Part shown: positions 7,262 through 64,000 of the stretch, one piece after another | How positions within the stretch are numbered: the first letter of the stretch is position 1 | Layout of the letters: the number at the start of each line of letters is the position of its first letter | NCBI GenBank assembly: GCA_903840385.1 | Contig: CAIMFT010000063.1 | Span: 1,620 to 65,619, forward strand | Length of the DNA stretch: 64,000 nt | Source: an uncultured Holophagaceae bacterium | GTDB lineage: Bacteria; Acidobacteriota; Holophagae; Holophagales; Holophagaceae | Direction: 5' to 3' | Notes under the pieces: model-generated | Database searches by the model: none | What the model saw: the letters and a program-made list of their open reading frames with translations, nothing else | Told to the model about the DNA's origin: nothing | Position numbers and translations under genes: made by a program

Positions 7262-7909
7262 TCAGCGTCCGCTCTTCTTCCAGTCCGCCAGGAAGCCCTC
7301 GATGCCCTTGTCCGTGAGGGGGTGCTTCAGCATCTGGTCGAAGACCTTGGTGGGGATGGTGGCCACGTGCGCACCGGCGAGCGCGGAGTCAGTGACGTGC
7401 CGGGGGCTGCGGATGCTGGCCGCCAGGCACTGGGTGGCGAAGCCGTAGTTCTCGTAGATGGCGCAGATCTCGCGGATCAGCTCCATGCCGTCCAGGTTGA
7501 TGTCGTCCAGGCGGCCCACGAAGGGCGAGACATAGGTGGCGCCGGCCTTGGCGGCCATGAGGGCCTGGGTGGAGCTGAAGCAGAGGGTGACGTTGGTGTG
7601 GATGCCTTCGGCTGTGAGGGCCTTGCAGGCCTTCAGGCCCTCGGCGATGAGGGGCAGCTTCACCACCACGTTCTTGTGAATCTTGGCCAGGCGCCGGCCC
7701 TCCTCGATCATGCCCGGGGCCTCCAGGCCGATGACCTCGGCGCTGATGGGGCCGTCCACGATGGCGCAGATCTCAGCGATGATCTCCTCGAAGGGCTTGC
7801 CCGTCTCCTTGGCGATGAGGCTGGGGTTGGTGGTCACCCCATCCAGGACCCCCAAGGCGTTGATGCGCTTGATCTCGTCGATGTTGGCCGTGTCGATAAA
7901 AAAGCGCAT
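7262..7909 (-). CDS. tal: Transaldolase, small TalC/Fsa family
   Basis: [15 protein letters not shown], Schiff-base Lys in VVVKLP, ASIR. ISAEV (Glu) and SPFVGR (Phe) are transaldolase-type rather than FSA-type residues. Confidence 0.9.
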
Positions 7910-8005
7910 GGAGGCTCCTCTTGGCCCCCAGGATAGCAGGGGGGCCGGGCCCGAATGGGGACGGGGAAGCCCCTGCCGCGATACGCTGTTTCCCGGAGCA
8001 TTCCC

Positions 8006-23185: not shown

Positions 23186-23533
23186 GTGCCCCTGGATGCC
23201 CCGACCCCCCTCTTTGTGGGGGAGCGCCTGCGAGATCTGATCCTGTGCTACGCCGGGCCCTGGGCGTTTGTGCCCTACATCCGCAGCCGGGAGGACAGCG
23301 AGCTGCTCTGGCATGCGCGGCAGGGCGTGATCCTGGCGTTTGCCGAGTGCGTGGTGGCTCTGGCCCTGGTCTTCATCGGCATCTTCCCCCTCTTTGGCTG
23401 GATCTTCGTCCGCTTCTTCCTGCCGGTGTGGCTGCTCTGGTGCCTGAGCATGGCCGTCACCAGCGTCCTGCAGGCCAGCAAAGGCAAGCGCCACAAGATC
23501 CCGGTGCTCCATCAGTTCATCGATTACCTCTGA
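23186..23533 (+). CDS. DUF4870-family small membrane protein
   Basis: Three TM segments, WHARQG, terminal KIPVL pattern. Confidence 0.7.
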   Translation: MPLDAPTPLFVGERLRDLILCYAGPWAFVPYIRSREDSELLWHARQGVILAFAECVVALALVFIGIFPLFGWIFVRFFLPVWLLWCLSMAVTSVLQASKGKRHKIPVLHQFIDYL

Positions 23534-23540
23534 TCCCTAG

Positions 23541-23588
23541 CGGGTCGCGGAGCAGGCGACTGAACGTCGCCTGCGGAGCGGGGACCCG
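23541..23588 (+). repeat. 48-nt covarying intergenic stem-loop element, copy A (REP-like or structured RNA)
   Basis: cgggt-cgc-gga-gcaggcgac-tgaac-gtcgcctgc-gga-gcg-ggg-acccg; same length and pairing as 63429-63476. Outer stem extends 23531-23597. Confidence 0.7.
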
Positions 23589-23616
23589 CTGGGATCAGAA
23601 TCATCTGCCGAGCGGG

Positions 23617-38603: not shown

Positions 38604-38621
38604 GTAGGTAGTCTCTGACTT

Positions 38622-38654
38622 CTGGAGGGGGCGGATCCCATCTGCCCCCTCCAG
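38622..38654 (+). terminator. Stem-loop after flagellin (terminator/attenuator or stability element)
   Basis: ctggagggggcgga-tccca-tctgccccctccag, 14-bp stem with one G-U; only a weak U-tract (ccgttt). Confidence 0.55.
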
Positions 38655-38682
38655 CCGTTTGAAACCGGAGAGGAGGTCCATC

Positions 38683-46613: not shown

Positions 46614-48065
46614 ATGCTAAAGAAAGTCGCCATATTCAAGGCCCTCGATGTGGAAATCAAGAAGCAGAGGGGACCCGTGGCGGTTAAGGACGGCTACAAG
46701 GGCCATCACTCCCTCAAAGAAGAGCTCAGCCAGCCTGGAATCACCATCTTGGGCGAAGTGGCCGGGGGTGACCCTGGCCGTGGTCAGGTGCGGGAATCCT
46801 ACAAGGCCTCCACCCACGCCAAGAGTCTGGCGGAAAACGGTGCCAAGGCGCTCTCCATCGCCACGGACAAGTTCCTCTACTACGGCGAGGACAAGCACCT
46901 CTCCGAGGTGCGCGCTCAGGTGAAGGTGCCCCTCATCCGTCGGGACTTCATCTTCGAGGAGTACCAGGTCGAGGAGAGCAAGATCCTCGGTGCCGATGCC
47001 ATCTACCTCATGCCGGCCATGCTCCCCCAGGAGCGGCTGCAGACCCTGCTGAAGTTCGCCATGAGCAAGGGTCTCGACGTGGTGGTGGAAGTGACCTCCG
47101 AGCTGGAGCTGGCCCGGGCCGTGGAGGCCGGGGCTGACATCGTGTGTGCCGTGGGCCGCAACCTCGACACCTGGGAAGCCTCCTGGGACCTGGCGCTCGC
47201 CCTCGTGAAGAAGGTGCCCAAGAGCTGTCTCCGCATGATCGAGGGCGGCGTCCTGCGCCTCGAGCAGATCAAGCAGGCCGAGGCCCTCGGGGTCCACGGT
47301 CTCCTCATCGGGGACGCCCTCCTCGACGACTACTATCCCGGCAAGCGCCTGGCCCAGATCCTGGCCGGCGTCGAGCCCCCAAAGAAAGCCGTGAAGCCCA
47401 AGGGCAAGACCGGCTCTGCCGCAGCAGCGGCGTTAGCCCCCACGGCCGCTCCTGCGGCCAAGGAATCCATCCCCACCCCGCGGGAAGTGCCTGCCCCCAC
47501 CGGCGCCAAAAGCGCCAAGGGCAAGGTCGCCACCCCCGCTCTTCCTTCCACCCCCGCCCTTAAGGGCAAAAAGGAGCCAAAAATGGCTGATCTGACCCCT
47601 CCGGCCGCCGCGCCGACCCCCGCCGCCCCGAAGAAGGCCGCCGCCAAGAAGGCCGCCCCCAAGAAGGCTGCTGTGAAGAAGGCCGCTGCCCCCAAGAAGG
47701 CCGCCGCCAAGAAGCCCGCCGCCAAGAAGGCCGCTGCCCCCAAGAAGGCCGCCGCCAAGAAGCCCGCCGCCAAGAAGGCCGCTGCCCCCAAGAAGGCCGC
47801 CGCCAAGAAGCCCGCCGCCAAGAAGGCCGCCCCCAAGAAGGCCGCCGTGAAGAAGGCCGCTGCCCCCAAGAAGGCCGTTGCCAAGAAGGCCGCCCCCAAG
47901 AAGGCTGCCGTGAAGAAGGCTGTTGCCCCGAAGAAGGCCGTTGCCAAGAAGGCCGCCGCCCCCAAGAAGGCTGTTGCCAAGAAGGCCGCCCCCAAGAAGG
48001 CCGCCGCTCCCAAGAAGGCCGCCGCCAAGAAGCCGGCTGCCAAGAAGGCCGCTGCCAAGAAGTAG
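46614..48065 (+). CDS. TrpC (IGP synthase)-like barrel with degenerate active site fused to histone-H1-like Lys/Ala/Pro tail
   Basis: LS..TD, P..R.DFI...YQ..E....GADA, VEV, LIG.AL pattern of IGPS, then about 145 aa of KKAAAPKK repeats in the same frame. Confidence 0.8.
   Translation: MLKKVAIFKALDVEIKKQRGPVAVKDGYKGHHSLKEELSQPGITILGEVAGGDPGRGQVRESYKASTHAKSLAENGAKALSIATDKFLYYGEDKHLSEVRAQVKVPLIRRDFIFEEYQVEESKILGADAIYLMPAMLPQERLQTLLKFAMSKGLDVVVEVTSELELARAVEAGADIVCAVGRNLDTWEASWDLALALVKKVPKSCLRMIEGGVLRLEQIKQAEALGVHGLLIGDALLDDYYPGKRLAQILAGVEPPKKAVKPKGKTGSAAAAALAPTAAPAAKESIPTPREVPAPTGAKSAKGKVATPALPSTPALKGKKEPKMADLTPPAAAPTPAAPKKAAAKKAAPKKAAVKKAAAPKKAAAKKPAAKKAAAPKKAAAKKPAAKKAAAPKKAAAKKPAAKKAAPKKAAVKKAAAPKKAVAKKAAPKKAAVKKAVAPKKAVAKKAAAPKKAVAKKAAPKKAAAPKKAAAKKPAAKKAAAKK
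47631..48062 (+). repeat. Coding low-complexity repeat (PKKAAAKK)n, including three perfect 48-bp tandem copies at 47676-47819
   Basis: Unit aagaaggccgctgcccccaagaaggccgccgccaagaagcccgccgcc starts at 47676, 47724 and 47772. Confidence 0.95.
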
Positions 48066-49714
<1,649 letters not shown>

Positions 49715-62900: not shown

Positions 62901-63420
62901 CATCCAGCTCATCATCAACCGGGAGCTGGGCGGGGCCAAGAACGAGAACCCCCTGCAGGGTGCCTACCTGATTGAGCAGATGACAGAGCTGGTGGAGGAG
63001 GCCGTGCTGGCCGAGTTCCGCCGCATCGCGGACCGGGGCGGCGTGCTGGGTGCCATGGAGACCATGTACCAGCGCGGCAAGATCCAGGAAGAGTCCATGC
63101 ACTACGAGCACCTCAAGCACAGCGGGGAGCTGCCCATCGTGGGCGTGAACACCTTCCTGAATCCCGATCCCCCACCCGCCGGGAAGCCTGAGCTGATCCG
63201 CAGCACCGAGGCGGAGAAGCAGCAGCAGATCGACAACCTGGCCGCCTTCCATGCCCGCAATGCCCACCGCTCCCCGGCCGCCCTGGCGCGCCTGAAGGAA
63301 GTGGCACAGGGAGGTGGCAACCTCTTCGAGGAGCTGCTGGACGCCGCCAAGGTCTGCAGCCTCGGCCAGATCAGCCAGGCCCTCTACGAAGTCGGCGGGC
63401 AGTACAGAAGGAACATGTAA
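59995..63420 (+). CDS. icmF: Fused isobutyryl-CoA mutase (B12-binding, MeaB-like GTPase, mutase domains)
   Basis: [13 protein letters not shown] (DxH B12 motif), [29 protein letters not shown] (Phe specificity residue), [13 protein letters not shown]. Confidence 0.93.
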
Positions 63421-63428
63421 GCGACCGT

Positions 63429-63476
63429 CGGGTGGCGAAGTGGAGGACTTAATGTCCTCCACGAAGCCGGGACCCG
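63429..63476 (+). repeat. 48-nt covarying intergenic stem-loop element, copy B
   Basis: cgggt-ggc-gaa-gtggaggac-ttaat-gtcctccac-gaa-gcc-ggg-acccg; the structure matches 23541-23588. Confidence 0.7.
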
Positions 63477-63546
63477 ACGAGGAGCTTATGCCACGCACGC
63501 CGCTCGATGGAGCCCTCGGCCTTCGTCGGCGTATCATGGTCCTTCC

Positions 63547-64000
63547 ATGTTTCGCCCCGCCCTGACCCTTGCCCTCGCCGCCCTGGCCCTCTCGGCCGGG
63601 TCGCCGAGGTCTGCCGCGAAGGCAGGCACCACCTACCTCTACACCTACTACGACAAGCAGGGCGGCCTCGTCATCAACAACCTCCCGCCCAGCTACATGA
63701 AGGGGCAGGGCCTGACCCTCAAGAGCGTGGGCGTAGGCAAGGTGCGGCTGGCGGTGACTGTCACCGAGATGGCCCGCGCCCTGAAGAGCCCTGAGCTCAT
63801 TGCGATGGTGGACGAGATCACCCAGACAGAGGGCGTGGACACCCACCTGGCGCGGGCGGTGATCCAGGCGGAGAGCGCCTTCAACTACCGGGCCCGCTCC
63901 CGAGCCGGGGCCCTGGGCCTCATGCAGCTCATGCCCTCCACCGCCGAGCGCTTCGGTGTTCTGGATCCCTTCGACCCCCGGCAGAACATCACGGGCGGCG
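63547..64000 (+). CDS. Lytic transglycosylase (SLT family), truncated by the window end
   Basis: Manual translation: signal peptide, then AVIQAESAFN..A.S.AGALGLMQLMP.TA..FGV.DPFDP.QNI.GG. Confidence 0.92.
   Translation, partial: MFRPALTLALAALALSAGSPRSAAKAGTTYLYTYYDKQGGLVINNLPPSYMKGQGLTLKSVGVGKVRLAVTVTEMARALKSPELIAMVDEITQTEGVDTHLARAVIQAESAFNYRARSRAGALGLMQLMPSTAERFGVLDPFDPRQNITGG

Follow-up and report, generated by a model that had tools for sequence, protein, structure and literature searches.

RESULTS

The icmF locus and its stem-loop

The subject of this study is a structured repeat in a 64 000 nt stretch of DNA from an uncultured Holophagaceae bacterium (assembly GCA_903840385.1, contig CAIMFT010000063.1), the whole of which is referred to here as the window. 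One copy of the repeat (copy B) starts 5 nt past the TAA stop codon of icmF, which encodes a fused isobutyryl-CoA mutase, and is followed by a co-directional SLT/DUF4124 gene, whereas another (copy A) lies between a + strand small membrane-protein gene and the convergent queA gene (Table 1). A first-pass annotation, made from the sequence alone, had recognized both the architecture that the two copies share and this difference in gene context, and had drawn copy B as a stem-loop at 63426–63479; every base-level detail of that structure was found in place, and it is identical to the minimum-energy fold returned by RNAfold (−48.2 kcal/mol). When copy B was compared with 200 dinucleotide shuffles (mean −23.9 ± 3.1), z was −7.7 and none of the shuffles folded as well; the opposite strand of copy B folds too (−41.1 kcal/mol). 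The extent originally assigned to the element is that of its core, and the true unit is longer, with a basal helix (P0, TAAGC/GCTTA) and a TGCCACG tail. The 3' flank of copy B, GAGGAGCTTATGCCACG, is also present at copies beside unrelated genes (loci L036, L083, L032, L074 and L068) and persists in an element remnant in L055. No U-tract follows copy B (3' flank GAGGAGCTTATGCC) and a terminator consensus scan gave no match, in agreement with the earlier statement that this is not a standard terminator; between copy B and the SLT gene a consensus scan revealed neither a promoter nor a terminator.

The native C-terminus of IcmF is kept in the window (...GGQYRRNM), and its relatives, whether they carry the element or lack it, share the ending ...GGQYRR(N/S)M. 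The icmF frame is free of stop codons through the element (63421–63546) into the ATG at 63547 and the frame of the SLT/DUF4124 gene, and a 25-codon open reading frame (ORF; 63488–63565) that overlaps the SLT start begins at the ATG of the conserved GAGGAGCTTATG in the 3' arm. Chance is the probable explanation of both; a stop-free continuation into the frame of the next gene was not seen at other loci.

Copy A has the layout of copy B with other letters in its stems. When the window and two extension loci were scanned with a descriptor of the layout alone, only copies A and B attained the maximum score (9/3/7 pairs), and cmsearch with filters off found the same two copies, and no others, in the window. 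Nothing in the window matched an Rfam 15 family at gathering score, and at a permissive E-value only sub-threshold miRNA/snoRNA noise was returned.

Table 1. Positions of copies A and B, their component parts and the icmF gene in the window
Feature	Position	Strand	Sequence or remark
icmF, fused isobutyryl-CoA mutase, IcmF type, 1141 aa	59995–63420	+	Upstream gene of copy B; B12-binding, MeaB and MM_CoA_mutase Pfam domains
Copy B, basal helix P0, 5' arm	63418–63422	+	TAAGC; begins with the icmF stop codon TAA (63418–63420)
Copy B core	63426–63479	+	
Outer stem P1, 5' arm	63426–63433	+	CGTCGGGT; GGGT family-invariant, outer 3 bp covary
Helix P2, 3 bp	63434–63436 and 63466–63468	+	GGC/GCC
Purine internal loop (GRA), symmetric 3x3	63437–63439 and 63463–63465	+	GAA opposite GAA
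Apical hairpin P3	63440–63462	+	Perfect 9-bp stem
P3 stem arms	63440–63448 and 63454–63462	+	GTGGAGGAC/GTCCTCCAC
Apical loop	63449–63453	+	TTAAT
GGG bulge	63469–63471	+	3' side; invariant in the family
Outer stem P1, 3' arm	63472–63479	+	ACCCGACG; 8-bp pairing with the 5' arm
Spacer, P0 3' arm and subfamily-II tail	63480–63495	+	AGGA, GCTTA, TGCCACG
P0, 3' arm	63484–63488	+	GCTTA; pairs with 63418–63422 in the minimum-energy fold
Copy A, full unit, subfamily III	23530–23603	+	cmsearch 68.5 bits
Copy A core	23539–23590	+	Outer stem AGCGGGT/ACCCGCT; CGC/GCG; GGA/GGA loop; stem GCAGGCGAC/GTCGCCTGC; loop TGAAC; bulge GGG
Copy A, stop codon in basal helix	23531–23533		TGA, within the 5' arm CTGATCCC
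Copy A, basal helix, 3' arm	23591–23598		GGGATCAG, pairs with CTGATCCC; followed by tail AATCA

A covarying repeat family in Geothrix and Holophagaceae

Further copies were sought with the pattern GGGTSGCGRA-N21-25-GRAGCSGGGACCC, in which the flanks are fixed and the apical 21–25 nt are free, in one genome per bacterial or archaeal species. This flank pattern matched 52 genome loci, approximately 45 of which are in Geothrix species and Holophagaceae metagenome-assembled genomes (MAGs; phylum Acidobacteriota); the few matches in other phyla lack the central hairpin and are chance occurrences. The window is itself part of a Geothrix-like MAG. With a further 24 loci from metagenomes that match the same flank-only pattern, the copies found number approximately 65, almost all from Geothrix/Holophagaceae, and the possibility raised in the first-pass annotation that a lack of other copies would point to coincidence does not apply. 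The full unit is approximately 75–100 nt long and has the ends TCGCGACC ... GAGCGA. Isolate genomes carry one to four strict-pattern copies each, which is a lower bound as diverged copies were not counted genome-wide; a covariance model adds diverged and tandem copies, only beside primary ones. Subfamilies were distinguished by their flanks, which recur at non-orthologous loci: TCTGACCCCGCC ... GGCGAGGGTCAGAATAA (subfamily I), TAAGCGACCGYC ... GRCGAGGAGCTTATGCCACG (subfamily II, including copy B), CTGATCCCTAGC ... GCTGGGATCAGAATCA (subfamily III, including copy A), GCGCGACCTAAGT ... ACTGGGAGCGTAGGCCAGTGCC (subfamily IV) and TCGCGACCATGT ... ACAGRRAGCGAATCA plus a tail (subfamily V). Literature searches on palindromic repeats of Geothrix and Acidobacteria returned no description of the element, and the family is apparently previously undescribed.

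The description of the stem-loop as covarying was borne out by an alignment of 47 copies. In this alignment the apical stem, which the search left free, is 96.8 % paired, with changes on both sides at eight of its nine pairs; in the structure as a whole, paired cells make up 98 %, compared with 35–42 % when the partners are slid by one to three columns, and double changes are found at 12 of 19 pairs. The observed covariation score was reached by none of 500 shuffles. The two S positions of the pattern are complementary in 46 of the 47 copies, although complementarity was not demanded, and P2 alternates between GGC/GCC and CGC/GCG (22–23 occurrences each, with one exception); the R on each side of the GRA/GRA loop varies independently. 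The core consensus is GGGT-SGC-GRA ... GRA-GCS-GGG-ACCC, the invariance of GGGT, GC, G.A and GGGACCC being partly built in by the search pattern. Diverged copies found with the covariance model vary at such 'invariant' positions, with covariation (GGGGTGAC...GTCGGGCCCCC in L051). The unpaired purines that are invariant in the family, those of the GRA/GRA loop and the GGG bulge, are on one strand only, and in the loop an R-R mismatch can be flanked by sheared G-A pairs. A kink-turn was considered and rejected by inspection, given the symmetric (3x3) form of the GRA/GRA loop and the 3-bp helix that parts it from the GGG bulge.

A second, related hairpin type, GGCGGGTGGC-TCG-GGACGCTGC...GCAGCGTTCC-AA-GCC-GGG-CACCCGCC, was detected by cmsearch at 31–40 bits (L014:4389-4443, L051:7630-7684, L042:1358-1412, L007:4010-4060 and L083:9106-9160). 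It is often in tandem after the icmF copy or a small-protein copy, and in it the GRA/GRA loop is nearly closed to a continuous helix.

The upstream stop codon is part of the basal helix

Wherever a copy directly follows a gene, its flanks form an extra basal helix, and the stop codon of the gene is the first triplet of that helix. This arrangement was found after at least 13 unrelated genes, among them icmF, frr (encoding ribosome recycling factor), recA, topA, genes for an EngB-like GTPase, riboflavin synthase (ribE), a membrane protein and small proteins, and one that we took by eye, from its sequence and without a family search, to be YceI-like. The first copy begins 0–7 nt past the stop codon of the co-oriented gene. 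In the minimum-energy folds of 29 stop-adjacent copies, 74 of the 87 stop-codon nucleotides are paired with the 3' flank, all three being paired in 22 copies, and the distance from the stop to GGGT is 7–9 nt in 27. At the icmF orthologues the stop covaries with a partner approximately 65 nt downstream: TAAGC/GCTTA in most, TGAGC/GCTCA in L027 and TAGCC/GGCTA in L051. After recA, TAACC pairs with GGTTA in the L032 fold; a similar pattern in L025, TGACC with a downstream GGTCA, is seen by reading only, but the minimum-energy fold there pairs the stop differently.

An orientation shared with respect to the upstream gene, as had been claimed for copies A and B, holds for all stop-adjacent copies; it does not hold for those copies that lie against the end of a gene on the opposite strand, nor for one antisense copy inside an ORF. 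Both ends of the element carry stop codons, TGA or TAA at the 5' end and GAATCA at the 3' end; the latter supplies a TGA when read on the opposite strand, and it is there that queA of L053 stops.

Some copies lie beside RNA genes. Subfamily-IV copies are situated approximately 77 nt beyond the 3' end of the signal recognition particle (SRP; 4.5S) RNA gene, antisense to it, and 58–124 nt after a DUF2400 gene (L013:6137-6362, L008:3280-3657, L011, L016, L020, L026, L040 and L005); the unit there consists of the element plus approximately 100 nt that include half of the SRP terminator hairpin, and is tandemly duplicated once or twice in some species. These SRP-adjacent copies first resembled a cobalamin riboswitch leader belonging to a large gene downstream, a link that was dropped when Rfam identified the neighbour as the SRP RNA gene on the opposite strand; a B12 theme through the B12-dependent icmF was likewise rejected, as the upstream genes share no common theme. 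In Geothrix alkalitolerans (L004:744-899) a copy directly follows tRNA-Val(CAC), and its basal helix, AAAACCCC/GGGGTTTTT, consists of the arms and U-tract of a canonical intrinsic terminator whose loop the element replaces.

Insertion, amplification and loss

The first-pass annotation had offered, as one of two readings, that the stem-loop marks the past insertion of a non-autonomous element, and the dispersal of the family agrees with this. Several copies are lineage specific: those after engB and ribE were found in one MAG, that after topA in two datasets and that after recA in two MAGs. Where copies are not at a same-strand stop, they are flanked by long direct repeats of target DNA, of which eight cases were found: 19 nt in L019, 25 and 27 nt at the two copies of L047, 31 nt in L061, 32 nt in L076, 44 nt in L053, 49 nt in L048 and 51 nt in L013. 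Control flanks, offset by 200–500 nt, gave repeats of at most 16 nt. In L047, L053, L061 and L076 the repeat is the last 7–12 codons of the opposite-strand gene. L053 represents a separate insertion into the intergenic region that holds copy A in the window, and its queA gene now runs into the element tail, ending at the TGA complementary to the TCA of GAATCA. The subfamily-IV copy by the SRP RNA terminator is flanked by 16–19-nt direct repeats in isolates of G. terrae, G. campi and G. alkalitolerans and in one complete MAG. New copies insert at the extreme 3' ends of genes, duplicating 19–51 nt of target.

At L061:129-240 and L047:1693-1800 the two copies of the duplication differ near the stop end by changes that are synonymous for the opposite-strand gene (endings RGVL* in both; HYE* with GAGTGA versus GAATAA). 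The differences may be due to chance, to selection acting on the copy that is functional, or to a longer duplication that has diverged.

The isolate G. fuzhouensis SG12 carries a full copy within a gene (L039:7466-7519, − strand), which lies in the antisense direction, but in frame, within the N-terminal part of nuoD (+ strand ORF 7286-7999, Complex1_49kDa); it would add approximately 18–20 residues, ATGPRSEGSTGSSSATRH, just ahead of the conserved ...MIVNLGPSHPTTHG. The element can also form tandem arrays and be lost. Many loci hold head-to-tail arrays of full or right-half units, at a spacing of 60–171 nt, and these arrays are not the same in closely related strains. At the copy A locus there is one unit in the window (23537–23603), and near-identical strains carry more, three in L081:2955-3149 and two or three in the pair L081/L069:2780-2909, the extra units having a degenerate 5' outer arm. 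A search for half-elements that might be the ends of a larger autonomous element yielded no candidate: the left-arm 10-mer was too noisy, and the right-arm solos were all partial tandem duplications.

Loss is illustrated by the icmF loci of relatives, where the first-pass annotation had proposed a presence/absence comparison. An orthologue of 83 % identity and the same synteny (L055:6457-6500) has kept ...GCCGCC joined to ACCCGGCGAGGAGCTCATGCCACGAG, with the 40-nt centre missing; a simple microhomology deletion was rejected as the cause, the junction of GCC to ACCC without GGG being a misfit to a clean deletion between GCC or CGGG repeats. More distant relatives have a canonical U-tract terminator (L056), a plain hairpin (L057) or nothing (L059 and L060) in its place. 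All five of these loci were negative in cmsearch.

Constraint and transcription at icmF

Nine orthologues of the icmF locus were used to measure constraint. Within the same apical type, identity over the 80-nt element is 0.84–0.94, compared with 0.62–0.82 at four-fold degenerate sites in the final 600 nt of the icmF gene and approximately 0.45–0.67 over the 120 nt downstream of the element. The icmF element therefore evolves more slowly than synonymous sites. Differences in its stems are compensatory (GTGGAGGAC/GTCCTCCAC, GCGGAGGAC/GTCCTCCGC and GTGGGCGAC/GTCGCCCAC). The evidence from RNA consists of low-share metatranscriptome contigs, one of which spans 63386–63566 and so crosses copy B into the SLT gene; the G. 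fermentans frr locus yielded no usable contig.

Other hairpins and repeats in the window

Two further features of the window were noted. At 47674–47995, read on the − strand, there are tandem repeats of approximately 48 nt, TTGGCGGCGGGCTTCTTGGCGGCGGCCTTCTTGGGGGCAGCGGCCTTCTT, which on the + strand appear to be Lys/Ala/Pro-rich repeat coding ending ...AAKK* at 48064; a perfect 12-bp palindromic hairpin without a U-tract follows at 48097–48124 (CAGAGGGGCGCG-CTGG-CGCGCCCCTCTG). At 38611–38665, just past a gene end, a strong hairpin, CTGGAGGGGGCGGAT-CCC-ATCTGCCCCCTCCAG, is followed by CCGTTTGAAA; it looks like an ordinary weak-U terminator, unrelated to the repeat family.

DISCUSSION

The stem-loop that follows icmF very probably belongs to a family of mobile, structured repeats whose structure is under constraint. 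More specifically, we consider it rather probable that copy B is a vertically inherited, subfamily-II copy of a small, non-autonomous palindromic repeat of Holophagaceae/Geothrix, resembling repetitive extragenic palindromic (REP) sequences and miniature inverted-repeat transposable elements (MITEs), and that the host has retained it as a probable mRNA 3' hairpin. That the element acts on the 3' end of the sense transcript had been suggested in the first-pass annotation, and such a role is compatible with its position at stop codons, its conservation above that of synonymous sites and its strand-asymmetric purines. Several MITEs affect the stability or processing of co-transcribed mRNA. Our tentative working model is that the element stabilizes RNA; this, the role shown for REPs and several MITEs, is the most economical reading. 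According to this model, the element would be transcribed as the tail of the icmF mRNA and would fold into a three-helix hairpin of approximately −48 kcal/mol, beginning just where the entry channel of the terminating ribosome ends. The hairpin might then shield the upstream ORF, by blocking 3'-to-5' exonucleases and/or by offering a site for processing or protein binding, while still allowing some read-through into the SLT gene. Purifying selection would act on its shape through a benefit to the host, possibly together with the structural needs of the mobilizing enzyme.

Several observations weigh against retention by the host as an RNA hairpin, or against parts of the mobility argument. The one RNA contig across copy B has a depth of 3 and could be DNA carry-over. 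Mismatches in the stems comprise nine G-U and seven A-C, without a G-U bias on the sense strand, so that there is no sign that selection acts on RNA and not on DNA. A canonical terminator distinct from the element lies behind it in L067, so that the element is probably not itself a terminator. The icmF copy of L027 bears the same apex as the topA copy of L021, and since apical hairpins look swapped between loci, gene conversion is part of the picture; quasi-palindrome correction or gene conversion could yield both covariation and slow divergence without a host function. The low copy number in isolate genomes is unlike that of classical REPs, the long target duplications at the ends of protein genes were seen in assemblies of MAGs or metagenomes, and no transposase, RAYT or other partner was identified, the loci not having been screened for transposase genes.

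The main rival is a purely selfish or neutral interpretation, in which the shape is kept by the recognition of folded single-stranded DNA or inverted ends by a mobilizing enzyme, together with self-correction of the palindrome and gene conversion, with no gain to the host and with gene ends as merely tolerated sites. The target duplications, the intragenic copy, the strain-variable arrays and the remnant are all in keeping with it, as are apical hairpins common to non-orthologous loci, stem mismatches without a G-U bias and stop codons at both ends, as expected of an element that minimizes damage. Nevertheless, orthologous copies persist across Geothrix species with conservation above that of four-fold sites, the asymmetries of the GRA/GRA loop and GGG bulge are invariant even though self-correction should erase them, and a stop-to-core spacing of 7–9 nt with covariation of the stop at 13 or more genes is hard to obtain by tolerance alone. 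We regard this interpretation as possible but on the unlikely side. The same purines, lying unpaired and invariant on a single strand, would be in keeping with a dedicated RNA signal acting in cis and dependent on a factor peculiar to the lineage (a terminator that requires such a factor, or a protein or RNase III site in the 3' untranslated region), as proposed for the Tuberculosis Rho-independent terminator (TRIT). The element would then have spread because of its usefulness, with mobility as an incidental feature. The restriction of the family to one family of bacteria agrees with such a signal, as do the narrow position relative to stop codons, similar to that of TRIT (PMC3152330), the canonical terminator at the equivalent place after icmF in L056 and the L004 element between the A- and U-tract arms after tRNA-Val. 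Yet nearly all copies are without a U-tract, the RNA contig reads through copy B, the L067 element has a terminator of its own behind it, some copies are antisense to the nearest gene end with one inside nuoD, and TRIT predictions themselves overlap mapped 3' ends poorly (bioRxiv 10.1101/2022.06.01.494293); a dedicated signal of this kind seems improbable to us. We would place at a similarly low level the more elaborate proposal that the element is a mobile RNA module which targets the 3' ends of genes or transcripts and takes the host stop codon into its basal helix, so that termination is mechanically coupled to hairpin folding and thus to decay, processing or downstream expression. The ribosome would in that case unwind P0 and P1, the invariant core would be docked at the mRNA entrance and a Holophagaceae-specific protein might read the GRA/GRA loop and GGG bulge.

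A device acting in translation itself is a still weaker candidate. Positioned at the ribosomal mRNA entrance when the stop codon occupies the A site, the core might modulate termination or recycling, promote read-through or couple to downstream initiation through an exposed 3' arm (GAGGAG..ATG in subfamily II). The stop-to-core spacing of 7–9 nt is that of known recoding stimulators, the stop is sequestered in helix P0, and many copies have the context TGA-C, which is a weak stop context. Read-through frames are, however, unconserved (that of copy A meets the TGA of the loop after 10 codons), subfamilies I, III and V have no 3' arm resembling a Shine–Dalgarno sequence with an ATG, and the copies after tRNA-Val and beside the SRP RNA gene cannot act through translation, all of which makes this explanation very unlikely. 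A selenocysteine insertion sequence or other recoding signal with a conserved extension peptide was rejected: copy B follows TAA, the downstream frames are unconserved, and the stems covary freely, which implies that there is no conserved peptide. Finally, hairpins are common after genes and the genome has a GC content of 67 %, so that a chance GC-rich hairpin or an ordinary intrinsic terminator might be supposed; given z of −7.7, approximately 65 covarying homologous copies and the absence of a U-tract, we consider this next to impossible. A mobile repeat that has been retained by its host is the reading that we prefer.

The family is absent from Rfam and from the literature searched, and belongs to the widespread iron-reducing Geothrix/Holophagaceae. 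The covariance model finds it reliably, which should aid annotation and the interpretation of assembly breaks in MAGs. It provides a natural example of a hairpin whose foot holds a stop codon, covarying with a base approximately 65 nt downstream, after many unrelated housekeeping genes, and it bears on the question of why lineage-specific hairpins such as TRIT sit on stops, whether as terminators, stabilizers or selfish DNA. This question is directly testable in the cultured carriers G. fermentans, G. limicola, G. paludis and G. fuzhouensis. The target duplications at gene ends, long and of variable length, point to an as yet unexplained mode of insertion.

Among known systems, REPs and REPINs are likewise short and imperfect palindromes of extragenic DNA, mostly at the 3' ends of genes, in clusters or arrays (PMC3733652). 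Their stems, too, are kept by compensatory change, and mRNA stabilization and termination have been proposed as their roles; REP termini can supply the stop codon of a flanking ORF, and intragenic REPs, occasionally in frame, are known (PMC3733652). The present element differs in having no conserved unpaired GTAG/CGTC tag: the CGTC of copy B is paired and unconserved, and in the 47-copy alignment the tag position, as defined for REPs (PMC3733652), reads NGYC, AAGT or TAGC and is paired. It is a three-helix hairpin of at least 54 nt with an invariant purine loop and bulge, as opposed to a simple hairpin of 20–40 nt, has few copies per genome where REPs usually have more than 100, forms head-to-tail arrays and not inverted dimers, and leaves long target duplications, whereas REP/RAYT transposition leaves none.

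The likeness to TRIT is functional and positional only. TRIT is also a conserved hairpin without a U-tract, restricted to a genus, reported only within Mycobacterium, and overlapping annotated stops narrowly, with a cluster at −8 from stop codons (PMC3152330); for both, a dedicated factor is suspected and function is unproven, the function of TRIT itself having been doubted (bioRxiv 10.1101/2022.06.01.494293). TRIT is, however, largely symmetric and bidirectional, with approximately 147 copies, whereas the element described here is strand-asymmetric, has few copies, bears signatures of insertion and occurs in another phylum. A hairpin followed by a U-tract, as in intrinsic terminators, is not what was found; L004 alone has a T5 run after its basal helix. 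In common with integron attC sites the element has a conserved outer stem, extrahelical bases, an unpaired central loop and a variable apex, with structure conserved over sequence and a position after an ORF in the same orientation, but the alignment contains no RYYYAAC/GTTRRRY boxes and the neighbours are core housekeeping genes with no integron or cassette context.

With bacterial MITEs such as Correia/NEMIS, ERIC, RPE and YPAL the element shares non-autonomy, terminal inverted repeats that fold into long RNA hairpins (the P0/P1 arms, e.g. TCGCGACCATGTGGGT ... ACCCACAGGGAGCGA) and target-site duplication; rickettsial RPEs also insert in frame into genes. The duplications are atypical, being variable, approximately 17–51 nt long and at gene ends as against a fixed 2–10 bp, and no parent insertion sequence is known. 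Direct repeats of variable length (8–514 bp) have been reported for IS1549/IS1634, the only insertion sequences so described (PMC2266710), a likeness in duplication footprint only, as the corresponding transposase and inverted ends were not searched for in Geothrix. The element thus represents a new family, in several respects unusual, within the known class of small palindromic repeats, and not a new principle.

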